Below are positions 10,455 to 43,922 of a DNA stretch of 64,000 nt, piece after piece; positions within the stretch are counted from its first letter, which is position 1, and the number at the start of each line of letters is the position of its first letter. The position numbers were made by a program, and so were the translations under genes. The DNA is from an uncultured Pseudomonadota bacterium. Lineage in GTDB: Bacteria; Myxococcota_A; UBA796; SXON01. The notes under the pieces were generated by a model, which was given only the letters and a program-made list of their open reading frames with translations, made no database searches and had not been told where the DNA came from. The DNA lies in contig CAISIK010000223.1 in assembly GCA_903885375.1 (NCBI GenBank), positions 1,443 through 65,442 of the forward strand, given 5' to 3'.

Positions 10455-11281
10455 TGCAGTTCGATACGCCACCCGATGTCTCACTGCTGCGGGTGGCCGT
10501 GAAACGTGCGGCGCCGCTGCCGGCCGACGGGAAGATTCCCCACATCGAAGCCCGTGCCAGCCGCCTCGAGCGGCCGGTCGCCGAGTATGCCCGGGTGTGT
10601 GGCTTCAGCACCGACACCCCCCTCCCCCTCACCTTCCCCGACCTGCTCGCGCGCGGCCTCCACCTCGCCGTGCTCACCCATCCCGCCTTTCCGCTCCGGC
10701 TCTTCGGCATCATCCACACCGAGCAGCGGATCGAGGCGCTGCGGCCGATCGCGCTCGGCGAAGCGCTGTCCGGCCGCGCCTGGGTGTCCGGTCCCCGGCC
10801 CGCCCGCCGCGGCGGCGAATTCGACCTCCACACCGAGGTCTTCGCGGGCGACACCTGCGTGTGGCGCGCCACCACCACCATCCTCTCGCGCGCCCTTCCG
10901 GGCGATGGCGAACGTCGCGTGCGGCCGCAACCAGCGCCGTTCGTCGCCGACCGCTCCACGGTGTGGGACCTCTCCGCCGACCTCGGGCGCCGGTACGCCG
11001 CGGTGAGCGGCGACCACAACCCCGTGCACCTCTGGCCGCTCACCGCCCGGCTGTTCGGGTTCAAACGCCCGATCGTACACGGCTGGTGGGCGCTGGCCCG
11101 GGCGCTGGCGGAGCTGGATAACGACGTGTCGGCCCCCTGCGTCCTCACCGCGAGCTTCCACTCGCCCCTGCCGCTCCCGGGCCGGGTCACGTTCAGCTCG
11201 GGGCGCACCAGCGCCGGCCACCATCGTTTCGAAGTCCGCCGCAAGGAAACCTGTCTCATCGGTGCCATCGAGCCCGCATGA
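10454..11281 (+). CDS. MaoC-family double hot-dog (R)-specific enoyl-CoA hydratase/dehydratase
   Basis: GRRYAAVSGDHNPVHL...IVHGWW hydratase motif; start ATG 10454 overlaps upstream TGA. Confidence 0.88.
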   Translation: MQFDTPPDVSLLRVAVKRAAPLPADGKIPHIEARASRLERPVAEYARVCGFSTDTPLPLTFPDLLARGLHLAVLTHPAFPLRLFGIIHTEQRIEALRPIALGEALSGRAWVSGPRPARRGGEFDLHTEVFAGDTCVWRATTTILSRALPGDGERRVRPQPAPFVADRSTVWDLSADLGRRYAAVSGDHNPVHLWPLTARLFGFKRPIVHGWWALARALAELDNDVSAPCVLTASFHSPLPLPGRVTFSSGRTSAGHHRFEVRRKETCLIGAIEPA

Positions 11282-28700: not shown

Positions 28701-31700
28701 GGCGAGGCGGAAGCTGTCGTCGCGCTCGAGCGCGTAGGCGTCGCGCACCTCGCCGAAGATCTCGGCCTGCTTCACGGTGTCGATGCCGAGGTCGGCTTCG
28801 AGCTCGTAGTTCGGATCGATCTCCGAGGGCTCGTAGCCCGTGCGCGCGGCCACGACCCCGATGAGTCGGGCGAGCACCTCGGTGTGCCCGGCGTGGGCAG
28901 CCTCGGCGGGCGCGCTGGCGGGCAAGCTGGCGGGAGGTGCAACGGCAGACGGAGTCGGGGTCGGCACGGGAGCCGCCACCGGGGCCGGCGCAGGCGCGGG
29001 CGCAGCGCCGGCAGCCTTGTCGGCCAGCCACCCCGCGAGCTTCGCCACGGTGGGGTAGTCGGCGAGCTTGAAGCTGTCGTCGCGCTCAAGCCCGTAGGCG
29101 TCGCGCACCTCGGCGAAGATCTCCGCCTGCTTCACGGTGTCGATGCCGAGATCGGCCTCCAGCTCGTAGCCGGGATCGATCTCGCCCACGTCGTAGCCGG
29201 TCTTCGCCGCCACCACGGTGATGAGCCGCTGGAGCACTTCCGCGCGGTCCACGCCCGGCGACGCTGCTGCGGGCGCCGGGGCCGCGGCTGCCGGGGCTGG
29301 CGCGGCCGCATCCACGGCCGTGATCGCTCCGGCAGCACGGGAAGCGAGCCATCCGGCGAGCTTCTCGACGGTGGGGTAGTCGGCCAGCTTGAAGCTGTCG
29401 TCGCGTTCCAGCCCGTAGGCATCACGCACTTCGGCAAAGATCTCCGCCTGCTTCACGGTGTCGATGCCGAGATCGGCCTCCAGCTCGTAGCTGGGGTCGA
29501 TCTCCTCACGCGAGTAGCCGGTCTTCTGCGCCACGACGCCGATCAGGCGCTGCAGCACCTCGGCGCCGCTCACGGAACCCTTCGGCGCTGCCGCCGCGGG
29601 CGCGGGAGCCGCCGGAGCGGCCGGAGCCGCCGCCCGCGCCGCGTTCGGATCGGGCACGAACCGGAGCTGACGGTTTTCGAGCGTGGTGCTGCCGGCAGCG
29701 CCGCCGACCCGCGCCAGCCACTGCCCGTACACCGCCGCGTCGCTTACGCGCACATCGCCGTTGGCGACCTTCTTCCAGGCCACCAACGCGAGCTGGCTGC
29801 CGAAGCCGGCGGCGAGCCGGAGGGCGTAGCGGATGTCGTAGTGCCCGCCGGTGCTCAAGGTGAGCTCGCCGAGGTCCGGGTCGCGCTCCTTCAGATTGGG
29901 GATCGGCGGCACCAGCTGGTACTGCAACGACTTGATCGCGACGGTGTCCTCGACGCCGGCGCCCATCGGGTGACCGGTGAACCCCTTGGTGTTGGCGATC
30001 ACGACCTTGGAGGCCGCGGCGCCGAAGGCGTTCGGGAGGCTCGCCATCTCCGCCGCCGCCGAGCCGCCCCGCGCGGGGGTGTAGGTCTCGTGGCTGAGGA
30101 AGACGCAGCTCTCCGCGAAGGTCTGGTGACTGACCCCCGACGCAGCGACCGCACGGTCCACGAGGGCCTTGACCTCGCGCGCGATGTGCGAGGCGTCGAG
30201 GCGGGTGCCGTGGAAGGCCGAGTTCGCGAGGTGCGTCGCGAGCAGCTCAGCGATCGGCACCATGCCGCGCGCGCGCACATCCGGCCCCCGCTCCAGCACC
30301 AGGCCGACCGCGCCCATGCCGAGGATCATCCCGTGACGGCGACGGTCGAACGGCAGCGCCGCGTTCTCGACCTCGGCCGTGGTGGTGGCCGCGCCGGCCG
30401 CCATGAAGCCCGCGCCGATCCACTGGAGCAGGTTCTCGCTCGTGACATCGTCGGCGCCAACCACGATCACGCGCTCGCACCGCCCGAGCCGGAGCCAATC
30501 CTCGGCCACGGCGATGGCCTGCGTGGTGCTCGCGCAAGCGGCGTTGACCGCCGTGTTCGGGCCGCGCGCGCCGAGGAACTGCGCGAGCTGGCTGTGCCCC
30601 ATCGAGAGCACCTGGAACAGGAACCGACGGTCGAAGTGGCCTTCGCCATCCCCGCCGTTTTCGCCCAGCTTGCCGACGAGCTGGTCGTAGCCGGGGAAGG
30701 CGCTCGCGAAAACGATGCCCGTGCCGTCGCGGAACGCCTCCGGCAGGGCCCAGCCCGTGGCCACGTCCTTGCCCGTGGTGGTGTGCCGGTAGGTGCGCAC
30801 CAGCGGGATGCCGGCGTCGCGCAAGGCCTCTATCGCCGCGGCGAACGCGAGCTGCGTGGTGATGTCGAGGCTCCGGGCGAGGCCCGGGTCTACGCCGTAG
30901 TCGGCGATGAGGTCGAAGTGCGACTTGCGGCCGGCGAGGCGGATCACCTGATCGCGGCTCTCCACGGGCAGGAAGCTGCCCTCGCCCGTTTGCGGGTCCT
31001 TCGTGAGCCGCATGAGCTTCTTGTCGAGGAAGCGGTCGAGGTTCGTCTCGTCCACCGAACCGATGCGGTTCTCGCCGCGGAGCATCCGCTGGATGCCGTC
31101 CACCTCGAAGACCTCGGTGCCACCGGGCAACCCGAGCGAGGCGCCCGAACAGACGATCTCGGCGCGGGCCACCGGCGCGGGGCGTTCGGCCGGTGCGGGA
31201 GCCGCCGCCGGGGCCGCGGGACGGACCGGCGCCGGGGGCGGCGCGGCGGCGACCACGACGGGTGCCTGGGCGGCTTGGAACGCCGTCCAAGCGGCGCCGA
31301 GGAAGCCCTGGAGCGCCGGGAGCATGGCGGTGGCAAAGGTGGACCCATCGACCCCGCGGAGGTCCTGACCGGCGATCTCCTTCAGGAAACGCGCGGCGCT
31401 GTCGGCGGGGAGGGTCGGGGCGCCGACCGTGGGCGCGGCCACGGGCGCCGGGAGGGCCCCGAGCTCGCTCGTGCCTCGCCGCTCGGGCATGGTGGAGGGG
31501 CGGGTGAACCCGCTGCGGCGGGCGGCGTAGTCCACCAGCTGCCGGAGGGTGCGGTGCTGACCCATCCGGAAGTCCGGGTCCGGGTCGAGGCGCAGGGTTT
31601 CGCGCACGGTGCCGATGACGTCGGCCATCTTGACGGTGTCGATGCCGAGGTCGGCCTCGACGTCGTGGTCGAGGGAGAGGTCCTCCACCGCGATGCCCGT

Positions 31701-34700
31701 CCGCCGGGCCACCACGTCGAGGATGGTGCGGGCGATCTCGGGCGTGCCCACGCGCTCCGCTTCGGCGGCCACCGAGGGCGTGGAGTTGCGCGCGGCGAGC
31801 AGCGGCGTGGTGCTCCGACGCGGGCCGGACGTGCCGAAGATGTCGGTGCTCCCCTCGGGGCGCGCGGCGATCGGGAAGCCGAGCACGAAGAGCTCGGCGA
31901 GGGCGTCGAGGAAGGAGCTGGCCCCGCCGCGCTTCGGCTGGTTGGTGTACAGCGCCCGGTGGGGGCGGTGCTTGAGGATCTGGACGACGAAGCCGGAGAG
32001 CGCGCGCTTGGGACCGCACTCCACGAAGATGCGGGCGCCGTCGGCGTACATGCGCTCGACCTGGGCGATCCACTCCACCGGAGCCGCCACCTGCAGGGCG
32101 AGGTTCTCGATGATCTGCTCGCGGGCACCGGGCCCCGTGGGGTAGTACCGGCTGTCCACGTTGGTGGTGACCCGGCGGCGCGGCTCGCGGATGTCGAGCT
32201 GCTGGAGCACGCGCTTGAGCGGCTCCGAGGCGGGCGCCACGATCCGACTGTGGAAGGCGTGGCTGACCGGCAGCGGGTACACCGTGATGCCGCGGCTCTT
32301 GAAGAGCTCGCTCGCGGCCTCCACCGCATCCGACTCGCCCGCGATCACGGTTTGTGTGGGGCAGTTCTTGTTGGCCGGCACCACGTAGCCGGGCACCTCG
32401 GCGAGCACTTCCATGACCACGTCGGTGCTGGCGGCGATTCCCGCCATCTTGCCCACGTCATCGAGCTTTACGGCGGCCATCTCCCGGCCACGCGCGCTCA
32501 CGGCCACGAGGGCCTCGCGGAAGGTCAAGATGCCGGCGGCAACGAGCGCGCCGTACTCGCCGAGGCTGTGCCCGGCCACCATGTCGGGCCGCACGCCGTA
32601 GGCGCTCATCAGGCGGAGGATGGCCACATCGACCGTGAGCGTGGCGGGCTGGGAGATCGCCGTGTCGCGGAGGCGCTCGAACTGCTCCTCTTCGCTCAGC
32701 GCGTCGTCGCGCCGGATGAGCGAGGTCAAGGACCGGCCCAGGAGCGGCGTCATCACCTCGTCGGCTTCGGCGAAGGTGGCGGCCACGACCGGGAACTGCT
32801 CCGCGAGATCGAGGCCCATGCCGATGTATTGGCTGCCCTGCCCGGTGAAGAGGAAGGCGAGCTCGCCGTCGCACGGCACGTCTTCGAGCGCGATCCCGCG
32901 CTGGCGAACAAGGTCGTAGCCCTTGCCCTTGCGGACGGCCGACACGACCTTCTCGAGCTGGCCCACCAGCTCTTCCTGGTTCTGGGCATGCGCCGACACC
33001 CGCAACGGGGCATCGCCTTCGTAGGGAGCGGCCTCGCCGCGCTCGGCAAGGGCCGTGCAGCGCTCCACCATCTCCTCGGGCGTGTCCGCCGAGAGCGCCC
33101 ACAACCCCGTCGGGACCGGCACCACGCTGGGGGCACGCTCCACCTGGTTGACCGGCGCCTGCGGCTTCCGGCCCGCCGGAGCGGCCACCGCAACGGGAGC
33201 GGCCGGCGGCGGGTTGGCGGGGGCGAGCACCGAGTGCGAGCGGGGGGGCCAGCTCGCGGCCGGCGCATCGGGGGAAGAAGCCCGCGCCATGCCGGGGCGG
33301 AAGCCCTCGAGCACCACGTGGAAATTCGTGCCGCCAAAACCGAAGGAGCTGATGCCCGCGAAGCGCGGACCGTTGCCCTCCCAGGCCTCCGTGATGGTCT
33401 GCACCTTGAGCGGCACCCGCCCGAGGTCGATGTCCGGACGCGGCTTCTTGTAGTTGATGCTCGGCGGGAAGACGCCATGGTGGAGCGCGAGGCACACCTT
33501 CAACGCACTCGCGGCGCCCGCGGCGCTCTTGAGGTGGCCGATGTTCGACTTCACCGAGCCGATGCGCGAGGGCCGGTTGCGCCGCCCGCTGCCCACGAGT
33601 TCGGAGAGCGCGTCGACTTCGACCTTGTCGCCCACGACCGTACTCGTGCCGTGACACTCGAACAGGTCCACGTCGGCCGGGTCGATCCCGGCGTTCTCGT
33701 AGGCGCGGTGCAGCGCCCGCTTCTGCCCTTCGGGATTGGGCGCAGTGATCCCCTTGCCCTTGCCGTCGGAGCTGCCGCCGAACCCGCGGAGCACGGCGTA
33801 CACACGGTCGCCATCGCGGAGCGCATCGCTGAGCCGGCGCAGCACCAGGATGCCGACGCCCTCGCCCATGACGAAGCCGTTGGCGTCGGCATCGAAGGGG
33901 CGGCTCCCGTCGGGCGACAGCGCCCCGATCTTGGAGAACTTGGCATAGGTGGCCACGCCCATCGAGCGGTCGGCGCCGCCGGTGACCGCCATGTCGAAGT
34001 CACCATCCTGCAGGCCCTTCACGGCCGCCTGCATCGCCGCCATCGAGCCCGCGCACGCCGCATCCGTCGTGAAGTTGGGGCCGCCGAGGTTGAGCGCGTT
34101 GGTGATGCGGCCGGCCACCACGTTGGCCAACTCGCCGGGCATGGAGTCTTCGGTGATGGGCGGCAGGTTCCGCTTGAGCTGTTCTTCGTAGGCCGCGAGG
34201 ATGGCGGCCCGATCGTCGGTGGGCAGGGCCGCGAACCCCTTCACCTCGGTGAGCGCCTTCCGGATGGCCGGGAACATCACGCGGATCGTGTACTCGTCCG
34301 TGATCTCGCCACCCATCGAGTTGCCGAGGATCGTGGCCACGCGGGCGCGGTCGTAGTCGCGCGATTCGCCGTAGCCGGCGTCCTCGAGCGCATCGGCCGC
34401 GGCTTCGAGCGCCATCTGCTGGATGGGGTCGACGAGGCGTGCCACCGAAGGCGGGATGCGGAAACGTTTCGGGTTGAAGACGAAGTCGGTGACGAAGCCG
34501 CCGATGCGGGCGTACGTCTTGTCGGGGACGGACTTGTCGGCATCCCAGTAGAGCGCCGGATCCCAGCGCTCGCGGGGCACCTCGATGATGCCATCGAAGC
34601 CGGCCACGAGGTTCTCCCAGAGGCGGGAGACAGACGGGCTCCGGGGGAGACGGCAGCCGAGGCCGATGACGGCGATCGGCTCGTTGCGCTCGAACGGAAC

Positions 34701-35477
34701 GTGCGCTTCGTCGACCGCCGGCGCGGGCGGCGCCGAGGCCGGAGCCGACACCTCCACGGCCCGAGGCCGCGCCCCGTAGGCGCGGACCGCCGCGCCGACG
34801 TCGGCGTGGCGGCGGTAAAGGCCGGCGGCATGAAGCGCTCCCGCGCCGATGGGCCAAGCCGAAGCGTAGGCATCGCCGCTCGTGTACACGCCCGCGGCCA
34901 CCTCCTCCACCGCTTCGCCGGCCGCCACGCGACGCCAGGCCGGGCTGGCGAGGCTCGCAACGAGGTTCTGATCGCCGAAGCGACGGAAATCGGCGGCCGA
35001 GAGCCGGGCCAGACGCCCGTGGAGGCCCTCCGCGAGCGGGAGGTGGGCGAGGAGCACATCGCTGAGGACCAGCCCCACACCGGCCGGCAGGGGCACTTCG
35101 GGGGGGTGAGGCCAGTCGACGAGCACCGCCACGCCGGCGGGCATCTCGGCAAGCAGCTCGCGAACGTCATGACGCCCAGCACGACCGCCGCTCCCGAGCC
35201 CGCGCAACATCACGCCCGCGAAGCCGGCGGGCGGGGCGCCCGCGGTGGTCCGCTCGAGCCATGTGGGGCGGCTGGGATCCGGCTTGCCTTCCTGAACCAC
35301 CAACGGCCCCGTGCCGGGCGCGTGGGTGGCGGAGCGCGCTCGTACCCAGGCGCCCGGCGGCACCTCGGCGCTGTCGGCCGTACAATCGATCAGGACCTCG
35401 AGCCCCGCGGCCGCGAACGCAGCGGCGAGCTCCGCGAAGGCGGCAGGGAGGACGACGAGGCGATTCGGCACGGCCAT
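25740..35477 (-). CDS. PfaA-like iterative type I polyketide/fatty-acid synthase: degenerate N-terminal domain-KS-AT-ACP-KS-ACP-ACP-ACP-KR-DH-PPTase
   Basis: KS1 DAACAGS/ECHGTST/NIGHLK; AT FTGQGSQ/GHSLG/HAFHS; ACPs EADLGIDTVK x4; KS2 NAACAST/SHETYTP/TGHPMGA; KR TGGTRGIT/YSAAN; DH DHAIDNVPVLPG; Sfp-type PPTase SITH/GVDME/WSVKEAVLKALG. Start ATG 35477 or GTG 35537. Confidence 0.93.
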   Translation of the reverse strand: MAVPNRLVVLPAAFAELAAAFAAAGLEVLIDCTADSAEVPPGAWVRARSATHAPGTGPLVVQEGKPDPSRPTWLERTTAGAPPAGFAGVMLRGLGSGGRAGRHDVRELLAEMPAGVAVLVDWPHPPEVPLPAGVGLVLSDVLLAHLPLAEGLHGRLARLSAADFRRFGDQNLVASLASPAWRRVAAGEAVEEVAAGVYTSGDAYASAWPIGAGALHAAGLYRRHADVGAAVRAYGARPRAVEVSAPASAPPAPAVDEAHVPFERNEPIAVIGLGCRLPRSPSVSRLWENLVAGFDGIIEVPRERWDPALYWDADKSVPDKTYARIGGFVTDFVFNPKRFRIPPSVARLVDPIQQMALEAAADALEDAGYGESRDYDRARVATILGNSMGGEITDEYTIRVMFPAIRKALTEVKGFAALPTDDRAAILAAYEEQLKRNLPPITEDSMPGELANVVAGRITNALNLGGPNFTTDAACAGSMAAMQAAVKGLQDGDFDMAVTGGADRSMGVATYAKFSKIGALSPDGSRPFDADANGFVMGEGVGILVLRRLSDALRDGDRVYAVLRGFGGSSDGKGKGITAPNPEGQKRALHRAYENAGIDPADVDLFECHGTSTVVGDKVEVDALSELVGSGRRNRPSRIGSVKSNIGHLKSAAGAASALKVCLALHHGVFPPSINYKKPRPDIDLGRVPLKVQTITEAWEGNGPRFAGISSFGFGGTNFHVVLEGFRPGMARASSPDAPAASWPPRSHSVLAPANPPPAAPVAVAAPAGRKPQAPVNQVERAPSVVPVPTGLWALSADTPEEMVERCTALAERGEAAPYEGDAPLRVSAHAQNQEELVGQLEKVVSAVRKGKGYDLVRQRGIALEDVPCDGELAFLFTGQGSQYIGMGLDLAEQFPVVAATFAEADEVMTPLLGRSLTSLIRRDDALSEEEQFERLRDTAISQPATLTVDVAILRLMSAYGVRPDMVAGHSLGEYGALVAAGILTFREALVAVSARGREMAAVKLDDVGKMAGIAASTDVVMEVLAEVPGYVVPANKNCPTQTVIAGESDAVEAASELFKSRGITVYPLPVSHAFHSRIVAPASEPLKRVLQQLDIREPRRRVTTNVDSRYYPTGPGAREQIIENLALQVAAPVEWIAQVERMYADGARIFVECGPKRALSGFVVQILKHRPHRALYTNQPKRGGASSFLDALAELFVLGFPIAARPEGSTDIFGTSGPRRSTTPLLAARNSTPSVAAEAERVGTPEIARTILDVVARRTGIAVEDLSLDHDVEADLGIDTVKMADVIGTVRETLRLDPDPDFRMGQHRTLRQLVDYAARRSGFTRPSTMPERRGTSELGALPAPVAAPTVGAPTLPADSAARFLKEIAGQDLRGVDGSTFATAMLPALQGFLGAAWTAFQAAQAPVVVAAAPPPAPVRPAAPAAAPAPAERPAPVARAEIVCSGASLGLPGGTEVFEVDGIQRMLRGENRIGSVDETNLDRFLDKKLMRLTKDPQTGEGSFLPVESRDQVIRLAGRKSHFDLIADYGVDPGLARSLDITTQLAFAAAIEALRDAGIPLVRTYRHTTTGKDVATGWALPEAFRDGTGIVFASAFPGYDQLVGKLGENGGDGEGHFDRRFLFQVLSMGHSQLAQFLGARGPNTAVNAACASTTQAIAVAEDWLRLGRCERVIVVGADDVTSENLLQWIGAGFMAAGAATTTAEVENAALPFDRRRHGMILGMGAVGLVLERGPDVRARGMVPIAELLATHLANSAFHGTRLDASHIAREVKALVDRAVAASGVSHQTFAESCVFLSHETYTPARGGSAAAEMASLPNAFGAAASKVVIANTKGFTGHPMGAGVEDTVAIKSLQYQLVPPIPNLKERDPDLGELTLSTGGHYDIRYALRLAAGFGSQLALVAWKKVANGDVRVSDAAVYGQWLARVGGAAGSTTLENRQLRFVPDPNAARAAAPAAPAAPAPAAAAPKGSVSGAEVLQRLIGVVAQKTGYSREEIDPSYELEADLGIDTVKQAEIFAEVRDAYGLERDDSFKLADYPTVEKLAGWLASRAAGAITAVDAAAPAPAAAAPAPAAASPGVDRAEVLQRLITVVAAKTGYDVGEIDPGYELEADLGIDTVKQAEIFAEVRDAYGLERDDSFKLADYPTVAKLAGWLADKAAGAAPAPAPAPVAAPVPTPTPSAVAPPASLPASAPAEAAHAGHTEVLARLIGVVAARTGYEPSEIDPNYELEADLGIDTVKQAEIFGEVRDAYALERDDSFRLADYPTVDKLAGWLAGRIAAKAGAAEPVEAPAPAVAASVAAPAAVPEAVAPAPEAAVPTLLPHQLPPDFRVRRVVRVSHVKLPVSTLRGQVVWVLGGGELGEHLRDEIRNAGGRSEGDPDVVVDCGAPLLELFAQAQRLDGRRPRQWLSILTPPADLKAARDNGARAGLCKALGREWEGCRARVVSVRANWPELDAARAIVDEMGEGDAANEVWIGPAERDVAALAVETVPTEGHWPEHPVVILTGGTRGITAQVALELARRGPCTLVLVARTLPGLLPLDEEKERPLIRQALEATNKRVTPKMIEDRLKPLRVSEEARQNVEAMIALGALVELRALDLANPDAVRLAVAELRMKHPRIDLVVHGAGVEESRLLTDKDETAFRRVFDGKAEGGLALAEGLDASTFFVSMGSIAGRFGNAGQVDYSAANEAMAQVCLARPRSLHLAWTAWAGVGMAVRGGMESLLTSRGVELLPPQAGARLLCDLVASGVCGELVVAGRLGDFQSPSIHPLLDSVELVGDRAIGRRRMSVETDPWILDHAIDNVPVLPGVMGLEMMVGAALASDPRGRFVGFEDVTFSAPLKLHRDQAADIEVTAEPDEEGAWRCTLSSSRTLKNGRTQVTRHFEARVQLVEMPLLPALPGAWFPEERVSQKDIYRRFFHGARFQVLRAAEAVTVQGLLAEAVVEHGSIAEGLISEPLVLESAFQAAGLHRIALEGVMALPASIDAVELVRSAVEGESLQVVVHVRGGGYDIDVDGPEGRIMRVRGFRMVEKGPLPPGDRLPVPEGGWPSASIAASSESEALPPGDREKMEARGTAKRRADRVAGQLAALRAVEALEPGAALAVDREPGGRPIVVGGPPRLEVSITHTDGEALALAVRGARAGVDMEAITPRPASFVEEWFSETERGWAHTDEAITVVWSVKEAVLKALGVGMALNPREIEVVGVEAGVATVRLSGEVLAAHTALGGAPIRVRVGMHAGRVVVTAVFAA
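28660..29570 (-). repeat. Three tandem near-identical ACP-encoding units separated by Ala/Pro-rich linkers
   Basis: Repeated DNA (e.g. gcctgcttcacggtgtcgatgccgag) near 28765, 29125 and 29446. Confidence 0.9.
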
Positions 35478-35605
35478 GGGGAACGCTCCGCGCGCGCCCC
35501 TATCCGCGATCGCGACAGGGAGCGAATGAGCGGCCATTCAGCCACGCTGCCGGGGGCGCGGCGTCGGCAGCGGGTTTGCGGTTAGGCCTTCCCCCGGAGG
35601 ATCCC

Positions 35606-36307
35606 ATGCTCCCAGGTCTTGTCGTCGTGCTCCTCGCCACGCCCGCCGCCGAAGCGCGCTCCAGCGAGGGTACCGGTGCCTTCGAGCTCAGCCCACGCGT
35701 GAACCGGCGCTACCAGGACGTGATCGTGACCACCGATGGCAGCCGCTGGCGGGGCCGGGTGATCGCGCGTGGGGAGCAGTACCGGATCCGGCTCGAAGAC
35801 CAGAGCGAGCTGGTGATCGCGAAGGAGGACATCGTGTCGGTCACCCGGGAGCTCAACCCGGCGCTGGTGCACAACGGCCAGTGGGCCTTTCGTGCCACAC
35901 CGGGCTTCGAAGCGGCCTTCGTCATCGCCGACGAGGGCGGCGGCCCGCAATACGGAGGCCTCCTCGAGGTGGCGGTGGCCCACAACTGGGGCGGCAGCTT
36001 CGAGCCCGAGCTCACCATCACCCTCTCCCCGATCGGTCCGAAGGACAGCCTCACGGTGGAGGCCGGAGTTGGCATCCGGTACTACCTCCAGCCCGACAGC
36101 AAGACGAAGGCGTACACGAACACCCAACTCATCCTCTACGGCAACCGCGGCGACCTCGGGCTCCGCACCGGTCCTGGCTTCATGTGGGACATCAGCCCGG
36201 GCTTCGGGATTGGCACGAACCAGGGCGTCACCCTGCTCATCCAGGACAACCCCGCCGCGGTGGCCGTCGGCTACCACGCGGGATTGACCGTGCAAGGGCG
36301 ATTCTGA
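35606..36307 (+). CDS. Hypothetical outer-membrane beta-barrel protein with small N-terminal domain
   Basis: GGAGG RBS, signal peptide, alternating amphipathic strands, C-terminal Phe (GLTVQGRF). Confidence 0.7.
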   Translation: MLPGLVVVLLATPAAEARSSEGTGAFELSPRVNRRYQDVIVTTDGSRWRGRVIARGEQYRIRLEDQSELVIAKEDIVSVTRELNPALVHNGQWAFRATPGFEAAFVIADEGGGPQYGGLLEVAVAHNWGGSFEPELTITLSPIGPKDSLTVEAGVGIRYYLQPDSKTKAYTNTQLILYGNRGDLGLRTGPGFMWDISPGFGIGTNQGVTLLIQDNPAAVAVGYHAGLTVQGRF

Positions 36308-36326: not shown

Positions 36327-37370
36327 ATGTCGCACCCCTCCCGCATCCTGGTCGTTGACGACGAGCCCCTGAACCTGCAGGTGTTCGAATACAACTTCGC
36401 GGAGGAGTTCCCGCTGCTGTACGCGTCCGGAGCCGAGGAGGCGCTGGCGCTCCTGGAGGCCCACCCGGTCGCGGTGATCATCGCCGACCACCGGATGCCC
36501 GGGATGCTCGGGCTCGATCTGCTCGCCCTCGTCGCGCGGCGTTTTCCCGCGGTCGTGCGGATGCTCCTCACCGCCCACACCGACGTTCCGCTCCTGCTCG
36601 ATGCGGTCAATCGAGGTGACCTCTTCCGGTACGTGCCCAAGCCCTGGGAGCCCGACGGGATGCGCCAGGACATGCAGCTCGCCCTGTCGCGGCACGGCGA
36701 GGAAATCCAACGGCAGCGCCTCCTCCGCCACGCCGCCGAGCACGTGCACACCACCGGCGCGCTCACGGCCTCGTTGGCGAACTCGCTCGGCGAGGTCGAT
36801 GCGCTCCTCACCGAGGCCGCCAAGGGCGGCGAAGGCGCCGCCAACGCGGCGCTCGTGCGGGCCGCCCTGCGCGTGCGGACCCTGCACGAAGGCGCCCTCC
36901 GGGAGTCCCGGCGGCAGGCGAAGCCGCAGCGCGAGTCGGTGACCGAGCTCGTGAGCGAGGCCGTGAACGCCGTCGGGCTGTGGAATGCCGAGAGCGGCGT
37001 GGCCCTGGAGCTGATCGACGAGGCAAGCGCCGCACAGGTGATGGTGCCCGCCATGCGGCTGGTGGAGGCAGTCACCGCGCTGCTGCGAAACGCCACCGAG
37101 GCCGCCTCGGCCGGCCCCGCCCCCCGCTCGGTGCAGGTGCGGGTGGTCCGCGCGGCGTCCGATCGCGTTCGCATCGTGGTATCCGACTCCGGCGGAGGCT
37201 TTTCGCCAGAGGGTCGCCCGGAGCTCTTCGGCTCCACGCGTGGCCGCGCGGGCTTCGGCCTCGCCATCGCCGGGGCCCTCGCCAACGGTGCAGGCGGCCA
37301 GCTCGACCTTTCTGGAGCGCAGAGCGGGCGGGTAGCCCTCACGCTTCCGCTCGCGCCGCCGGGTCGCTGA
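36327..37370 (+). CDS. Response regulator receiver + degenerate histidine-kinase (HATPase) protein
   Basis: ILVVDDE, IIADHRMP, LTAH, VPKPW; N box LLRNATEA, DSGGG, GFGLAIA; H-box region GALTASLANSL has no His. Confidence 0.85.
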   Translation: MSHPSRILVVDDEPLNLQVFEYNFAEEFPLLYASGAEEALALLEAHPVAVIIADHRMPGMLGLDLLALVARRFPAVVRMLLTAHTDVPLLLDAVNRGDLFRYVPKPWEPDGMRQDMQLALSRHGEEIQRQRLLRHAAEHVHTTGALTASLANSLGEVDALLTEAAKGGEGAANAALVRAALRVRTLHEGALRESRRQAKPQRESVTELVSEAVNAVGLWNAESGVALELIDEASAAQVMVPAMRLVEAVTALLRNATEAASAGPAPRSVQVRVVRAASDRVRIVVSDSGGGFSPEGRPELFGSTRGRAGFGLAIAGALANGAGGQLDLSGAQSGRVALTLPLAPPGR

Positions 37371-40171
37371 TGCAGGGGTTCCCGAAGCGCACCAACCCCC
37401 GGCGGCGCACCATCCTTCGGCTGGAAGCAGGCCGGCATGATCGTGAGCGCGTGCTGAACCTCTCCGCGAACGGCATGTTCGTGGCGGGAGCGAAGGTTGC
37501 CGATGCGGCGCGCGGAGCCCTGTTCATTCCCGGCGAGGACCGTCCCCTCGAGCTGAAGTTTCGTTCGGTCTTCCAGCGGGCCGATGGGCTCGGCGTGCAG
37601 TTCGACACCGAAGACCGCCGCACCCGCAACGAGCTCCTCGCCTACGTCACCTTCCAGCACGAGCAAGCGCGACTCCAGGCCATCGAGACCCGACTGCACG
37701 GCCGGCCGATGAACCTCAAGCCGTTGAACGAAGCGGAGGGCACCCGCGTGGCGCTCCGCCCGATGGAGCGCACGGGCCGCGCGGTGGAGGTGTATCGACG
37801 CATCGACGGCTCGCCGATCCGCGCCTCCCTCACCGCGGTAGACCAGGCCAACGCCCGCCTCTCGATGCTGCTCGACCAGAGCAGCGAGTCCGCCGACGAG
37901 TTCGACCAGGTCTTCCTCGTCCTCCGCCAGGGCGACGTGTCCTTCCTCGCCGACACCGTCGTGGAGACCGCCCGGGGCCGCGTGGCCTCGCTGATGCTCC
38001 CCGAGCGCATCTTCTTCCCCGAACGCCGGATGCTGGAGCGGGAAGCGAGCGGCACCGGGGTGATGCGGGTGGAGATCGACGGCCGAACGCGGGTGATGGG
38101 CGTGCTGCAGTCCGACCCGAACGGCTTCTCGGTCCAGGTCTGGGCGGTCGACGCCGATGCCTTCACGGCCGGGCGCGAGATCACCGGCTGCATCCTGCAG
38201 GAAGGCGACCGAAGCGGGCCGGTGGGTCCCGTGATCGTGGCTTGGCGCGCGGATGCGCCCCAGGAAGGGCGACTGCGCCTGGGGTTGCGGCGGGTCCAGG
38301 CACGCGTGTCGGTACCGCAGCAACGGCTGGCGTTTTCCGAACAGTCCACGACCCTCTTCCAGCGCGCCTGGGGAGGCGTGCAGCACGTGGTGGGCGGGTG
38401 GCTCGCCCGCACCGGCGTCGTGGCGGGTCCGGGCCTGCCGCAGGTCTGGGAAGTTCCCGACGAGGCAGGGCGCCCGGTGGTGGCCCTCGTCAACGCCACG
38501 TTCGACCTGGCGCATCCGCCCGAGGGCAACCTCAACGTCGTGCTGGTCCCTCCGCCCTTCGCGCGCCGCAAGGAGACCCTCGGCCCCGTCGCCCTCTCGC
38601 TCGTGGAGACCTTCCGCGCCGCCGGCGAGCACGCGGTGATCGTGCGGTGGGATGGCATCAACCATCTCGGTGAGAGCTGGAAGGACGAGGCGAGCCGGCA
38701 GCCCGGCCGGGAACTCATCCATTGGACCCTGGGGCAGACCGTTCGGGACCTCGCCAACGTGCACCAACGGGTTCGGGAACGCTTCGCCGGTCGCACGCTC
38801 CGGACCGCGATCGTGTCGTTCTCCATGTCGGCCGTGGCGGCCCGCCGCTACCTTTCCGGGGGCGTGCCGGACGTCCACTACTGGCTCGCGCCCATGGGCG
38901 CGCCCGACCCGCGCGACATCATCCGGAACTCCAGCGGTGGCGTCGACTGGGTCGGCATGCGCAAACGGGGCGCGCAGCTCGGCGTGAACCCCATCCAGGG
39001 GCACCTGCTCGACTGCGACCGGGGTTGCGACGAGATGCTGGGGAGCCGGATCGCCGAGCTGGAGGATGCGCGGCGGGAGATGGCCCTCATCAGCCAGCCG
39101 GTCACCTGGTTCTGCGGCCAGCACGACTACTGGGTGAATCCGCTGCGCGTGGAGGACATCCTCGGGGTACCGGCGCCCGGCACCCGGGAGCTCATCCGCG
39201 TGCCCACCGGCCACTTCGTCCGCCAGAGCGGCGAGGCCATGGAGACCTTCCGCCTCCTTGCGAGCAAGGTGGCCGGCACCTTGCTCGGCCGCCCCGTGAC
39301 CGCCGTCCTCCCCGCCTCGCACGCCTTCACCCGTGCGGCAGAATGGGAGCGGGGGCGGCGCCAGACCGAAGCGTTCGACGACCAGCGGTACTGGAGCGAC
39401 TACCTGCGCGGCACCACCCGCAATCCCCTCGGTTTCGACGTGCTCGCCCTCACGGACGAGTACGAGGAGCTGATGAACGAGCAGGTGGACCAGCTCGGCA
39501 TCCAGTCCGGCGAGCGCGTGCTCGACGCCGGCTGCGGAACCGGAAACGCGCTCGCGGCCATCGTCCGCCGCTGGGGGCACGGGGCGCCCGGCATCCAGAT
39601 CGACGCCATCGACTTCGTGCCCCACGCGCTCGAAACCGCGCGCGCAAAAGCTGCGTCCGCGGCTGCCGAGGTTGGACTCCCGACGTTGGAGGCGCGCTTC
39701 CACGTTTGCGACCTCCGCCTCCCGGCCGACAACTCCGTCCTGCCTTTCGGCGACTCCGCGTTCGACGTGGTGCTCGTCAGCCTCGTCCTCCCCTACCTGC
39801 CAGAGCCGGCGGCGCTCCTGCGCGAGCTCAATCGTGTGCTGCGCCCGGGCGGGCGCCTGGTGGCCAGCACCCTCCGGCCGGATTGCGACATGAGCGGGCC
39901 GCTCAAGCGCCTCAAGGAGAAGATCGAACGCGGCGACGATCAGGTGAAAGAAGGCTGGCGGGCGCGCCAGCTGCTGGTGGCCGTGCAGGACTACGTGAAC
40001 GCGGCAGCCGGGCTCGTGGAGCAAGAGGCCGACGGCCGGTTCCAGTTCTATGAACGCGAGGCGTTCGAGGGCCTCCTCCGCAGCGCCGGCTTCCGCACCG
40101 AGTCCACGCAAGCCACCTTCGGCACCCCGCCCCAGGGTCTGGTGACCCTCGCACGAAAGCCGAATGGATAG
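37370..40171 (+). CDS. Multidomain PilZ / LuxD-like acyl-thioesterase (alpha/beta hydrolase) / class I SAM methyltransferase fusion
   Basis: PilZ RTNPRR...NLSANG; hydrolase PFARRKE, RWDGINHLGES, SFSMSA, GQHDYWV, TGH; MTase VLDAGCGTG, LPFGDSAFD, RVLRPGG; TGATG coupling. Confidence 0.82.
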   Translation: MQGFPKRTNPRRRTILRLEAGRHDRERVLNLSANGMFVAGAKVADAARGALFIPGEDRPLELKFRSVFQRADGLGVQFDTEDRRTRNELLAYVTFQHEQARLQAIETRLHGRPMNLKPLNEAEGTRVALRPMERTGRAVEVYRRIDGSPIRASLTAVDQANARLSMLLDQSSESADEFDQVFLVLRQGDVSFLADTVVETARGRVASLMLPERIFFPERRMLEREASGTGVMRVEIDGRTRVMGVLQSDPNGFSVQVWAVDADAFTAGREITGCILQEGDRSGPVGPVIVAWRADAPQEGRLRLGLRRVQARVSVPQQRLAFSEQSTTLFQRAWGGVQHVVGGWLARTGVVAGPGLPQVWEVPDEAGRPVVALVNATFDLAHPPEGNLNVVLVPPPFARRKETLGPVALSLVETFRAAGEHAVIVRWDGINHLGESWKDEASRQPGRELIHWTLGQTVRDLANVHQRVRERFAGRTLRTAIVSFSMSAVAARRYLSGGVPDVHYWLAPMGAPDPRDIIRNSSGGVDWVGMRKRGAQLGVNPIQGHLLDCDRGCDEMLGSRIAELEDARREMALISQPVTWFCGQHDYWVNPLRVEDILGVPAPGTRELIRVPTGHFVRQSGEAMETFRLLASKVAGTLLGRPVTAVLPASHAFTRAAEWERGRRQTEAFDDQRYWSDYLRGTTRNPLGFDVLALTDEYEELMNEQVDQLGIQSGERVLDAGCGTGNALAAIVRRWGHGAPGIQIDAIDFVPHALETARAKAASAAAEVGLPTLEARFHVCDLRLPADNSVLPFGDSAFDVVLVSLVLPYLPEPAALLRELNRVLRPGGRLVASTLRPDCDMSGPLKRLKEKIERGDDQVKEGWRARQLLVAVQDYVNAAAGLVEQEADGRFQFYEREAFEGLLRSAGFRTESTQATFGTPPQGLVTLARKPNG

Positions 40172-42794
40172 CGGGGTAAATCCTCGTAGAATATGGGCAT
40201 TCGAGGCGGATTTGCGCGCACGCACGGTGCGCGGCATGCGCCTGGCGGCGGGGGTGGGCGCCACCTTCGTGCCCATGTTCTACTTCCTCGACCGGCTGAT
40301 CGTTCCAGAGCTGGCCGACCAGTTCTTGCGCTGGCGGCTCCTGGCCTCGCTCATCTGCACGGGCTGCATCCTGTCGAGCTACACGGAGGCCGGGCGCCGC
40401 CACATCGTCCCCGTCTCCTACGTGGCCTGCCTTTCGGTGAGCCTGTCGATCGCGGCGATGGTCACCAGCATCGCGCCCGGGGAGTCCACCTACTACGCCG
40501 GGCTGAACCTCTGCCTCCTCTCCACGGCGGTGCTCTTCCCGTGGGCGCCGCGCCACACCGCAGCGATCGGCGTGATCGTGGTGGCATCCTTCGTCGTTCC
40601 GGCGCTGGTCTCGCCGCCGGACAGCCTCGGCATCTTCGCGAACAACCTGTTCTTCCTCGTGGCAACCGCCGCGATCGGGGGTCTTTCCTCCCTCGCGGCG
40701 TTCAACGAGCACCGCCGCCGGTTCGACCTCTCGTGGTCCCTCGAGCTCCGTTCTGCGGATCTGGCCGGCGCCAACGAACGACTGCGTCAGGTCGACGAGC
40801 TCAAGAGTCGGTTCTTCGCCAACGTCTCCCATGAGCTCCGCACGCCGCTGACCCTCGCGATCTCGCCGGTGGAGGCGCTCCTGACCACCCCCGGCCTCCC
40901 GCCGACGGTGACGGCCACGATGCGTTCGTTGCACATCGATCTGCTCGCGCTGCGTCGTCGCATCGAGGACCTCATCGACCTCGCCCGGCTGGACAGCGGT
41001 CGCCTGCGCCTGCCCGACCGTCCCGTCGCCTTCGCGCGGATCGTGGCCGATGTGCTCGACGCCGCGCGCCCCTTCGCCGAGCGTGTCGGCGTCGCGCTCC
41101 GCGCCGAGGTGCAGCCGGACCTGCCGGTGGTCATCGGCGATGCCGGCGTGCTCGAGCAGGTGGTCTTCAACCTCCTCTCCAACGCGCTCAAGTTCACGCC
41201 GGCCGGCGGCGAGGTCACGGTGTCGCTGCACGCCCTCCTCGGCTCCGCCGTGCTCCGCGTGTCGGACACCGGAAAGGGCATCTCCGCGGCCGACCAGGCC
41301 GAACTCTTCACCCGCTTCGGGAGCACCACCTCCAGCACCGCCGCGCGAGGAAGCGGCCTGGGACTCGCGCTGGTGAAGGAATTCGTGGAGCTGCACGGCG
41401 GAACGGTGGAAGTCCGCTCCTCCGAAGGCCTGGGCACGACCTTCGAGGTGCACCTCCCCCTGGCCCCCGACGGAACCACGGAATCGGGCATCGACGGCGG
41501 CTCGAACGTGGGCGCGATGGACTTCGAGAGCGAGCTCACCCTCCGCGACGACGACATCCTCGTGCAGCCGCACGACGACGACCGCTCCCTCGTGCTCGTG
41601 GTCGACGACAACCCCCGACTCCGCAAGCTCGTGGCCACCACGCTCGCCGAGGAGTTCCGCGTGGCCGAAGCGCGCGACGGCGCCGACGCGCTGGCCCGCA
41701 TCCGCCAGTCCATGCCCGCGGTCGTGGTGGCCGACGTGATGATGCCGGTCATGGGCGGGCGCGAGCTGCTCGCGACCATGCGGAACGACCCCCGCCTCCG
41801 CCACATCCCCGTGCTCCTGCTCACGGCGCACGCCGACGCCGACGTGCGCGACGAGGCGCTGGAGACCGGCGCGTCGGACTTCCTCAGCAAGCCCTTCTCC
41901 ACCCGGGAGCTCCTCGCGCGCGTGCGGAACTTCGTGTCCCTGCGCAGCGCCCAGCTCGCGCTCGCCTCCACCAACGACGCCCTCGCCCTCGCCCTCGACC
42001 AGACCCGCACGGCGCAGGCCCGGGCGGTCCGCGCGGAGAAGCTCGCCGCCATCGGCCAGCTCGCCTCGGGCATCGCGCACGAGGTGAAGAACCCCATCAA
42101 CTACATGCTCAACTTCGCGCGGCCGGCCCGCGGCAAGCTGGACCGCGCCCAGTCCGGGCAGCTCCCCGCGGATGCGGTGGCGCGGGAATTGGCCAGCGTG
42201 GGGGAGGCGCTGGGGCGGGTGGTGGAGGGCGGCGAACGCATCCTGCGCATCGTGAACGGCCTGCAGGCCTTTGCCCGAGGTGGCCAGGCCCGCGTGCCCG
42301 TCGCGGTAGACGCGGAGGTGGCCGCCGCGCTGCGCCTCACCGAAGGGACGGCCCCCCCGGGCGTGCAGATCACCTCCAACCTCCAGAGCGAGGGGACGGT
42401 GCTCGGCAGCCCCGTGAGCATCGGCGCGGTCACCCTGAACCTCGTCTCCAACGCCCTCCGCGCGCTCTCCCCCGGCGGCACCGTCCGGGTCTCCACGACC
42501 AGCGACGAAGAGTCGGTCTGCCTCGTGGTGGAGGACGACGGGCACGGCATTCCCCCCGAGTACCTCGACCGGATATGGCACCCCTTCTTCACCACGAGGG
42601 GCGCCGGCGAGGGCCTCGGGCTGGGGCTCGCGCTGGTGCTCCGCATCGTCAACGAGGACATGGGCGGGCGCATCCAGGTGCGCAGCGAGCCCGGGGAGGG
42701 CACCCGCTTCGAGGTGACGATTCCCCGGAACTCGTCCCGGCGGGACGACAGCACCTGGACCGATCTCGCCCGCGGGATCACCGCGCCGAGCTGA
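40164..42794 (+). CDS. Membrane hybrid sensor kinase: ~6TM-HisKA-HATPase-REC-HisKA-HATPase
   Basis: TM sensor with YYAGLNL; SHELRTPL, NLLSNALKFT, GSGLGL; REC VDD/ADVMMP/KPF; second AHEVKNP, NLVSNA, PFFTT, GLGLGL. Start could be later (ATG near 40236). Confidence 0.93.
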   Translation: MDSGVNPRRIWAFEADLRARTVRGMRLAAGVGATFVPMFYFLDRLIVPELADQFLRWRLLASLICTGCILSSYTEAGRRHIVPVSYVACLSVSLSIAAMVTSIAPGESTYYAGLNLCLLSTAVLFPWAPRHTAAIGVIVVASFVVPALVSPPDSLGIFANNLFFLVATAAIGGLSSLAAFNEHRRRFDLSWSLELRSADLAGANERLRQVDELKSRFFANVSHELRTPLTLAISPVEALLTTPGLPPTVTATMRSLHIDLLALRRRIEDLIDLARLDSGRLRLPDRPVAFARIVADVLDAARPFAERVGVALRAEVQPDLPVVIGDAGVLEQVVFNLLSNALKFTPAGGEVTVSLHALLGSAVLRVSDTGKGISAADQAELFTRFGSTTSSTAARGSGLGLALVKEFVELHGGTVEVRSSEGLGTTFEVHLPLAPDGTTESGIDGGSNVGAMDFESELTLRDDDILVQPHDDDRSLVLVVDDNPRLRKLVATTLAEEFRVAEARDGADALARIRQSMPAVVVADVMMPVMGGRELLATMRNDPRLRHIPVLLLTAHADADVRDEALETGASDFLSKPFSTRELLARVRNFVSLRSAQLALASTNDALALALDQTRTAQARAVRAEKLAAIGQLASGIAHEVKNPINYMLNFARPARGKLDRAQSGQLPADAVARELASVGEALGRVVEGGERILRIVNGLQAFARGGQARVPVAVDAEVAAALRLTEGTAPPGVQITSNLQSEGTVLGSPVSIGAVTLNLVSNALRALSPGGTVRVSTTSDEESVCLVVEDDGHGIPPEYLDRIWHPFFTTRGAGEGLGLGLALVLRIVNEDMGGRIQVRSEPGEGTRFEVTIPRNSSRRDDSTWTDLARGITAPS

Positions 42795-42800
42795 TCCGCC

Positions 42801-43922
42801 TCAGGATGGGTAGACGGGCGGCCACGCCGCGCCGGGGCGGGCGAGGTGGAAGCCCTGCAGCAGGTTCGCCCCGCAGCGCACGGCCGTGGAGGCCTCTTCT
42901 TCCGATTCCACACCCTCCGCCACCAGCTCGCTGCCCGTGGCCGAAGCGAAGTTGGCGAGGAGCTGGAGCAGGCGCTGCTTGCGCGGCTCCCGATGGGCGT
43001 TCCGCACGATGCTCATGTCGGCCTTGATGAAGGCGGGGCTGAGCTCCGCGAGCACGGACAGGCTGTTGTAGCCGCTGCCGATGTCATCCACCGCGATGCG
43101 GAACCCGCGGCGCCCGAGCTCCCCGAGCGCCTCCTCGGCGCCGTGGTAGTCGGAGAGCGGCGCGCGCTCGGTGATCTCCAGCACCGTGCGGGCGGCGAAG
43201 GGCTCAAGGCAGGCGAAGGCCTCCAAGGCGCGCGGCCCGGCGAACTGGGCAGGATGGGTGTTCACGAAAACGTCGACCGACGCCGGCACCCTCTGCATCC
43301 ACCCGGCCGCGAGCTGGTTCACCACGCGGCCGAGGTCGGCCTCCCGGCCGCTGCGCTCCACGGAGTCGAGGACGCGGAGGGGATCAGACAGGGTGGGGTG
43401 GGTGGAGCGGAGCAGCAGCTCGACCGCAGCGAGACCGCGGGTGCGCGCCGTGAACATCGGCTGGATCGCGAGCGAAAACATCCCGCCGTCCACGCACTGC
43501 TGGAACATCGACGAGTGGAACTCCACGTCGTGCGTGCGGCGGATGGCCCGGCGCACGAGCGCACCGGCCTCCTGGAGCGCCCGCAGCTCCCGCTCGAATT
43601 GCTCCGTCTGGAAGGGGCGCCGAAGCACCCGCTGGGCGATGACCGCGCCGGCCCCCAGGTCGCTGCCGGAGCTGGTGAGCAGGAGCCGCATGGTTTCGGG
43701 GTGGTGCTCGCGCGAGTGCGTCAGCAACCCGGTGCTCGCCTCTTCGCCGAGCTCGTCGGACACGACCAGCACGTCGACCCGACGTGCGCTGAGACCGCCG
43801 AGGGCCTCCTCCGCCGTGCCCACCACCTCCACGGTGTTTCCCGTGTCGGTGAGGAGACGGAAAAGGGTACGCCGCAACCCTTCATTTGTATCGGCGAGGA
43901 GGATGTGGGCGGGGGCTTCCAA
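42801..43922 (-). CDS. Degenerate REC + EAL domain c-di-GMP phosphodiesterase
   Basis: IQP, ELLLR, FVN, LEITER, VDDIGSGYNS, IKAD, VAEGVE, LQGF; REC phosphoacceptor region reads VLVVSDE; TTG start. Confidence 0.88.
   Translation of the reverse strand: MEAPAHILLADTNEGLRRTLFRLLTDTGNTVEVVGTAEEALGGLSARRVDVLVVSDELGEEASTGLLTHSREHHPETMRLLLTSSGSDLGAGAVIAQRVLRRPFQTEQFERELRALQEAGALVRRAIRRTHDVEFHSSMFQQCVDGGMFSLAIQPMFTARTRGLAAVELLLRSTHPTLSDPLRVLDSVERSGREADLGRVVNQLAAGWMQRVPASVDVFVNTHPAQFAGPRALEAFACLEPFAARTVLEITERAPLSDYHGAEEALGELGRRGFRIAVDDIGSGYNSLSVLAELSPAFIKADMSIVRNAHREPRKQRLLQLLANFASATGSELVAEGVESEEEASTAVRCGANLLQGFHLARPGAAWPPVYPS

Follow-up and report, generated by a model that had tools for sequence, protein, structure and literature searches.

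A candidate c-di-GMP-gated acyl methyl ester synthase with a partner sensor kinase in an uncultured Myxococcota bacterium

The locus and the layout of the fusion protein

The DNA examined here, referred to as the window, is a 64,000 nucleotide (nt) stretch of contig CAISIK010000223.1 (positions 1,443 to 65,442, forward strand; assembly GCA_903885375.1) from an uncultured bacterium that is entered as Pseudomonadota and placed by GTDB in Myxococcota_A (UBA796; SXON01). At 37370–40171 on the forward strand it contains a gene whose predicted product of 933 amino acids (aa) joins an N-terminal PilZ domain, a second PilZ-like region, a LuxD-like hydrolase/acyltransferase domain and a class I S-adenosylmethionine (SAM)-dependent methyltransferase. 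Upstream on the same strand, at 36327–37370, Pfam identifies a 347 aa receiver and HATPase_c protein, the stop codon of which overlaps the start of the fusion gene (TGATG). As Pfam found no HisKA in it, this protein may be kinase-like and lack the phospho-accepting histidine; its Verrucomicrobiota counterparts do possess HisKA. Downstream, at 40164–42794 and again on the forward strand, lies a gene for an 876 aa hybrid sensor kinase that, according to Pfam and hydropathy, consists of a hydrophobic multi-pass N-terminus, HisKA-HATPase, a receiver and a second HATPase. Its start overlaps the end of the fusion gene by 8 nt. Convergent with these genes, at 42801–43922 on the reverse strand, is one for a 373 aa receiver-EAL protein (Pfam EAL, E 5e-41), a putative phosphodiesterase of cyclic diguanosine monophosphate (c-di-GMP).

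The translation of 37370–40171 is free of stops, and this 933-codon ATG frame is enclosed by a longer, GTG-started one. We take the ATG at 37370 as the likely start because it overlaps the upstream stop, because the N-termini of 17 full-length orthologues (43–86% identity) align there and because the receiver and HATPase gene fills the upstream stretch in another frame. Hydropathy predicts no membrane segment in the N-terminal and hydrolase parts of the protein. DNA of this locus was seen again in lake and freshwater metagenomes from eight studies. A preliminary description of the window had listed a series of motifs, and all of them were found at the sites given: RTNPRR at residue 7, NLSANG at 30, PFARRKE at 396, RWDGINHLGES at 426, VSFSMSA at 482, MGAPDPRD at 509, GQHDYWV at 583, PTGH at 612 and VLDAGCGTG at 717. 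Its three domain assignments (PilZ, LuxD-like and methyltransferase) also hold, on evidence from Pfam, from comparison of profiles with the PDB and from motifs.

The central domain (residues ~352–666; 38423–39367, forward strand) was recognised from matches of family profiles to LuxD, the Vibrio harveyi myristoyl-acyl carrier protein (ACP) thioesterase/acyltransferase (PDB 1THT). When a profile of 22 slices of this domain, taken from the window, loci L001 and L002, one member of the Opitutaceae and 18 Nitrospirota (mostly Nitrospirales), was used to query the PDB, LuxD was returned at E 7.4e-42 over chain residues 16–293 of 305, and the next hydrolase followed at E 7.6e-13. A full-length profile of 22 homologues likewise returned 1THT as its best match overall (E 1.1e-19), and its 58 PDB matches contain no other hydrolase. 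Although a Pfam scan gave no match to the central domain of the window enzyme itself, PF02273 (the LuxD family, Acyl_transf_2) matches 8/22 homologues, the best at E 2.7e-27. Residues 352–666 of the model stored in the Atlas gave a template modelling (TM) score of 0.87 against a 307 aa PF02273 cluster by that row, and of 0.46 by the query.

Alignment with LuxD places a putative catalytic triad in this domain. Ser485, the middle serine of VSFSMSA (codon 38822–38824, forward strand, as in the preliminary description), is the putative nucleophile in S-F-S-M-S and aligns with the serine of A-A-S-L-S-A in LuxD. The putative triad acid, Asp586 in HDYWV (39125–39127, forward strand), aligns with the first aspartate of NNDDWV, and the putative base, His615 in PTGH (39212–39214, forward strand), with the histidine of GSSHDL. 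These Ser, Asp and His residues of LuxD form its own catalytic triad. Each of the three is invariant in 60/60 aligned family sequences. The resemblance to LuxD had initially been proposed without an alignment, and the profile searches, in which 1THT is the top PDB hydrolase, bear it out. The triad at LuxD positions, with a serine elbow of the form S/A-x-S-x-S/A instead of G-x-S-x-G, is equally supported by the alignment, and a wide gap in E value separates LuxD from the next hydrolase. By these comparisons, the central domain is best read as LuxD-type, with 1THT its closest solved relative. The two proteins differ in the methyltransferase and PilZ to which the window domain is joined, and in the short insertions that the window clade has after the GES motif. 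Nor is the setting that of a lux operon, as the neighbours are signalling genes. In the window's genome, which is 90.5% complete, there was no match to the LuxE family and there were two weak matches to the LuxC family, both on other contigs and with a model that also matches in 8/14 control genomes; luxAB were not searched for.

The C-terminal domain (residues ~672–933; 39383–40168, forward strand) is, as judged from Pfam and PDB matches, a SAM-dependent methyltransferase of class I that has a helical lid at its N-terminus. Residues ~700–912 pass the cut-offs of five Pfam models (Methyltransf_23, 11, 31, 25 and 12; E 3e-17 to 6e-14) and match solved methyltransferases in the PDB at E~1e-11. 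Its SAM motif I, VLDAGCGTG (39518–39544, forward strand), had pointed to this class from the outset, and in it D719, G721, G723 and G725 are invariant among orthologues. Among short methyltransferases outside the fusion family, the closest show a drop in score from 211 to 80 bits. These short relatives are fragments or generic enzymes, with none named PhcB among them, and a search of the Atlas with the methyltransferase part returned only generic methyltransferase clusters. The domain fits no single substrate class and, from its sequence matches, cannot be assigned to one.

The N-terminal PilZ domain (residues ~5–100; 37382–37669, forward strand) was recognised by a Pfam PilZ match to residues 9–94 (E 4.5e-4) together with two motifs read from the sequence, RxxxR at R7-T-N-P-R11 (37388–37402, forward strand) and NxSxxG at N30-L-S-A-N-G35 (37457–37474, forward strand). 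PilZ (PF07238) was found in 20/22 homologues at E<=0.01, the best at E 4.2e-20, and reaches 77 bits, in two stretches, in the homologue from Nannocystis (L002). Both motifs are retained in 19/19 homologues that have this region. In bioRxiv 10.1101/2020.02.11.943704, the c-di-GMP-binding motifs of PilZ are defined as RxxxR and D/NxSxxG, and the N-terminal PilZ thus keeps both putative binding motifs, which upholds the PilZ signature originally noted there.

Between this domain and the hydrolase are a helical linker and middle domain (residues ~101–212; 37670–38005, forward strand), conserved among orthologues and without a match in a Pfam scan, and a degenerate PilZ-like region (residues ~216–335; 38015–38374, forward strand) preceded by a conserved ERRxLxR (R220..R224). 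A reading of the middle domain as yet another PilZ, the third in the protein, was rejected, since hhalign against the two PilZ regions gave probabilities of just 0.3% and 1.2%. The preliminary description had spoken of further PilZ-like segments, and this stands in part. The second RxxxR (R220..R224) is present in 20/20 homologues, and hhalign of the first PilZ with residues 212–335 gave a probability of 64% (E 6e-5), but the second D/NxSxxG is degenerate: 18 close orthologues have D[A/P]NG instead, and the canonical form occurs only in homologues P0020 and P0021. On these comparisons, the N-terminal half is made up of a canonical PilZ, a middle domain that no Pfam family matches and a degenerate PilZ-like region.

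A family with partner kinases in three phyla

When a profile of the LuxD-like and methyltransferase core was used to search 1.84 billion representatives at E<=1e-30, 771 clusters at 50% identity were returned, with lengths of 547–1421 aa, from Verrucomicrobiota, Nitrospirota and Myxococcota. Source names for the members are generic ('methyltransferase domain-containing protein', UbiE-type C-methylase or 'hypothetical protein'), and the core represents a large uncharacterised family. The initial view of the window protein as a LuxD fold repurposed on its own was therefore not borne out, and PilZ is just one of several inputs. In Verrucomicrobiota, and there in Opitutaceae, two-domain forms of ~565 aa prevail, while Nitrospirota forms, measured as open frames, are 750–1440 aa. 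PilZ is also carried by the Nitrospirales versions. Ahead of the core, family members vary, with no input domain, PilZ, or a receiver-PAS-PilZ arrangement. The last of these, with two PilZ copies, was seen in L014 (Nitrospirota) and L020 (Nitrospirales), the latter with an additional kinase-like segment detected by phmmer.

Closer to the window, matches were found in 5/9 other genomes of its genus, 12/24 of its family and 21/121 sampled genomes of its order, the window's own genome being counted in the last figure. In 400 genomes sampled from the class to which a Methylomicrobium genome belongs, no fusion of LuxD and methyltransferase was found, only weak generic hydrolases (best E 1.5e-14), and a tblastn search of plasmids with residues 345–933 returned generic methyltransferases in 23 records, none of which covered 80% of the query. 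Open-access main-text literature yielded no description of a LuxD-like and methyltransferase protein, with or without PilZ, and in the available parts of two PilZ surveys no passage on methyltransferases, hydrolases or acyltransferases shows this architecture. Distant Myxococcota homologues (L002 and L146–L154; 1040–1200 aa) have a 100–200 residue insertion that splits the methyltransferase after the SAM motif, and such split domains appear as two-piece matches.

A sensor kinase gene lies directly downstream of the enzyme gene in 41/43 judgeable loci in the three phyla, although the loci are related within phyla and stand for about three independent lineages rather than 43. The 43 comprise 16 loci from named genomes, 11 from Verrucomicrobiota and 16 from the window's order. 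Among 21 named-genome loci, 15 have a same-strand kinase gene directly downstream and five end too early to judge; the exception is L020, where receiver genes follow and the kinase-like segment is inside the enzyme's own frame. The domain was found in 12 of 301 sampled Verrucomicrobiota genomes, and in all 11 newly added loci that were compared (11/11) a 7TM-GAF kinase gene comes immediately after the enzyme gene, with a receiver-HisKA-HATPase gene also present in 10/11. In the window's order, a hybrid kinase is directly downstream in 15/16 loci, and a receiver and kinase-like gene adjoins the enzyme gene in 8/16.

The partner kinases of Nitrospirales and Opitutaceae have N-termini that span the membrane several times, made up of HisKA_7TM and GAF. 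Genes for c-di-GMP turnover recur with them. An EAL-bearing gene is present in the flanks of 11/16 loci of the window's order, and the two such products examined are PAS-GGDEF-EAL proteins. The partner kinase of Nannocystis itself ends in receiver-HD-GYP. The window's own genome contains 23 GGDEF matches.

A possible acyl methyl ester signal and its alternatives

A predicted acyl-thioester-cleaving domain is here fused to a SAM methyltransferase, and the gene product would therefore, most simply, be a maker of acyl methyl esters. In the route we propose, the LuxD-like domain would use its Ser485/Asp586/His615 triad to transfer a fatty acyl chain to Ser485 and then release it, the donor being a carrier-bound acyl thioester (acyl-ACP in the case of LuxD). 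The fused methyltransferase would methylate the released acid, most simply at the carboxylate, to give a volatile, membrane-permeant methyl ester. Binding of c-di-GMP by the N-terminal PilZ would switch the enzyme on or off. The translationally coupled multi-pass hybrid kinase may sense this lipophilic ester or some related cue in the membrane, and its receivers, together with the neighbouring receiver-EAL protein, could change the local c-di-GMP level and so close a feedback loop on the PilZ-bearing enzyme.

Three observations add weight to the proposed regulated signal synthase: the membrane sensor kinase that follows the enzyme in nearly all loci, the c-di-GMP turnover genes that share the cluster, and a gene content that matches phcB, phcS and phcR of Ralstonia, as set out in PMC8578825. 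The PilZ of the enzyme and the linkage of c-di-GMP turnover proteins to the partner kinase likewise suggest a loop that might run from the kinase through a phosphodiesterase or cyclase and c-di-GMP back to the PilZ-enzyme. We put the probability that the window encodes a c-di-GMP-gated enzyme that frees and methylates an acyl chain, with a partner kinase that senses the lipophilic ester, at roughly 45%. What the analysis shows is which domains are present, and that their putative catalytic and ligand-binding residues and the gene neighbourhood are conserved. From domain content and gene order we infer the substrate, its O-methylation, the role as a signal, the binding of c-di-GMP and the direction of control. 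The wider proposal is more tentative, and we would sooner bet against it than for it: that the LuxD-like and methyltransferase enzymes and their kinases form an unrecognised acyl methyl ester system of cell-cell signalling in three phyla, in which synthesis in Myxococcota would be gated by c-di-GMP via PilZ, with kinase feedback via EAL, GGDEF-EAL or HD-GYP proteins.

The closest parallel in gene content is the phc system of Ralstonia. According to PMC8578825, the methyltransferase PhcB makes methyl 3-hydroxymyristate, the kinase PhcS senses it, and PhcR is the receiver and kinase-domain protein of the operon. The two systems share three kinds of gene, for a SAM methyltransferase, a membrane sensor kinase and a soluble receiver and kinase-like protein, a likeness of gene content alone. 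The known phc product (methyl 3-hydroxymyristate or -palmitate) is a fatty-acid methyl ester, the kind of compound proposed for the window enzyme. However, the window enzyme adds a LuxD-like acyl-releasing domain and PilZ, and c-di-GMP genes are absent from the phc operon as the available portions of the cited papers describe it. In PMC6580516, phcBSR together span ~3.9 kb, and PhcB is therefore too short for both catalytic domains. At most, the window enzyme might be a distant, extended analogue of PhcB.

Other known proteins resemble parts of the arrangement. Pseudomonadota proteins named 'bifunctional alpha/beta hydrolase/class I SAM-dependent methyltransferase' (~580 aa) have the two catalytic domains in the same order, but belong to other Pfam families (Hydrolase_4 and Methyltransf_20) and gave a structural TM of 0.39; we know of no characterised member. 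For the PilZ part, a model is cellulose synthase BcsA, an enzyme gated by a fused PilZ domain. BcsA PilZ packs against its catalytic domain, as reported in bioRxiv 10.1101/814665. Enzymes of this type share with the window protein a canonical PilZ and a catalytic domain in one chain, and direct allosteric control by c-di-GMP is therefore implied as a prediction for the latter. The window protein differs in that its PilZ is N-terminal and followed by the degenerate PilZ-like region, and in that its catalytic part is the pair of LuxD-like and methyltransferase domains.

Several observations weigh against the methyl ester proposal. The window sequence is too diverged for detection by the LuxD family model, and PF02273 gave no match to it at E<=10. 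When only the 18 close orthologues went into the profile, 1THT was still the sole hydrolase found, but the match was weak (E 7.8e-4, residues 388–492). On the enzyme itself, the Pfam PilZ match scores 20.9 bits and misses the gathering cut-off of 22.5 bits. No substrate-specific methyltransferase model was reached: the best NCBIfam match has 63 bits where its cut-off asks for 155, and the models for the fatty-acid O-methyltransferase Mtf2 and for BioC gave 24.9 bits (cut-off 400) and 41.9 bits (cut-off 184.95), respectively. A receiver domain is present within the enzyme relatives L014 and L020, and relatives with a receiver of their own fit an enzyme that is the output of the kinase as well as they fit a kinase that senses the product. 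The nucleophile serine is gone in 4/19 Nitrospirales copies (L009, L016, L017 and L020), and L009 and L020 have lost the aspartate and histidine too. Thus, not every family member is an enzyme, and the copies without the serine may be pseudo-enzymes that act as sensors. L009, L016 and L020 have long open frames (1111–1441 aa).

An enzyme that is a mere output of a two-component and c-di-GMP system could take part in remodelling membrane lipids, with the hydrolase acting as a lysophospholipase or acyltransferase on glycerolipids, the methyltransferase acting on the head group or the acyl chain, and the kinase monitoring membrane state. The receiver-fused relatives suggest such an output role. 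Relatives also match Hydrolase_4, which is of lysophospholipase and monoglyceride-lipase type, and the weaker PDB matches include monoglyceride lipases, but LuxD beats every lipase by ~29 orders of magnitude in E value. Phosphatidylethanolamine N-methyltransferase and enzymes resembling cyclopropane-fatty-acyl-phospholipid synthase are among the PDB matches of the methyltransferase, yet those matches are generic, and the N-terminal and hydrolase parts have no predicted membrane segment. We regard lipid remodelling as unlikely, though it deserves to be kept in view. Much the same standing, or very slightly less, is given to a regulated methyl ester or other acyl-derived product without a signalling role (for instance a compound for storage or detoxification, a volatile or the precursor of an antibiotic), the production of which is only timed by the kinase. 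The domain evidence is identical for this and for the signal proposal, the input domains vary across the family, and the kinase GAF domains could sense something else. On the other side, the enzyme gene is closely paired, often with overlap, with that of a multi-pass membrane kinase in three phyla, which is the pattern of a synthase and its receptor, and no further biosynthetic genes are conserved alongside; adjacency of a polyketide synthase (PKS) gene is limited to the window, L001 and 3/5 loci of the same genus.

Two further alternatives reinterpret the chemistry. BioC and BioH also pair a SAM methyltransferase with an alpha/beta hydrolase and act on ACP-bound carboxylates, and by analogy the methyltransferase could mask the carboxylate of a dicarboxyl-ACP (e.g. 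malonyl-ACP) for extension, with the LuxD-like domain freeing an omega-methyl-ester acid. BioC is indeed among the NCBIfam matches (TIGR02072, E 1e-10), and some relatives are entered at JGI as 'pimeloyl-ACP methyl ester carboxylesterase', but the BioC score is far below its cut-off, the hydrolase is LuxD-like rather than BioH-like and the gene setting is one of signalling, not cofactor synthesis. We consider this route very improbable. LuxI-type synthases, which make autoinducers of the acyl-homoserine-lactone class, use an acyl-thioester and SAM, and these equal the substrates implied here. A new synthase of that kind, in which a Ser485 acyl-enzyme acylates the amino group of SAM as the aminobutyryl donor, would also fit the pairing with a kinase. 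Against this, every family that the domain matches is one of ordinary class I enzymes that transfer methyl groups, with no pointer to aminocarboxypropyl transfer, and of all the explanations weighed here it appears the least probable.

If the methyl ester proposal is true, a LuxD-type acyl-releasing domain and a methyltransferase would make up a new type of autoinducer synthase, found together with its receptor kinases. The carriers belong to environmentally important, little-studied groups (freshwater Myxococcota, nitrite-oxidising Nitrospirales and Opitutaceae), and to our knowledge few quorum-sensing systems are known in Verrucomicrobiota, Nitrospirota and Myxococcota. Direct gating of extracellular signal production by c-di-GMP would also be the first case known to us. 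A single polypeptide that leads from acyl-ACP to methyl ester would also be of interest for the biological production of fatty-acid methyl esters. One biochemical characterisation would annotate the many generically named genes in the 771 clusters.

Further genes at the window and related loci

On the reverse strand at 25740–35537, divergent from the enzyme gene and 1.8 kb from it, is a PKS gene for a PfaA-like synthase of 3265 aa. The synthase includes KS, AT, four PP-binding stretches, a second KS-like segment, KR, DH and a C-terminal 4'-phosphopantetheinyl transferase, and Pfam found no thioesterase domain in it. We considered this PKS as a general acyl donor and rejected it, as it adjoins the enzyme gene in 0/11 of the more distant loci of the window's order. 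A gene for a ~230 aa protein without a Pfam match lies between the PKS gene and the signalling operon (35615–36304, forward strand), and is kept at the same position in L001 and in 5/5 loci of the same genus.

Verrucomicrobiota operons contain a conserved gene of ~474 aa, also without a Pfam match, between the 7TM-GAF kinase and receiver-kinase genes. It is at 10809–12230 in L123, with counterparts in L003, L116, L117, L119–L122 and L124–L126 and none in the window. Directly upstream of the PilZ-LuxD-methyltransferase homologue of Nannocystis bainbridge is a gene for a protein of the metallo-beta-lactamase fold (L002, 8984–9868). As this fold includes signal-degrading lactonases and esterases, the protein could be a signal-quenching partner.

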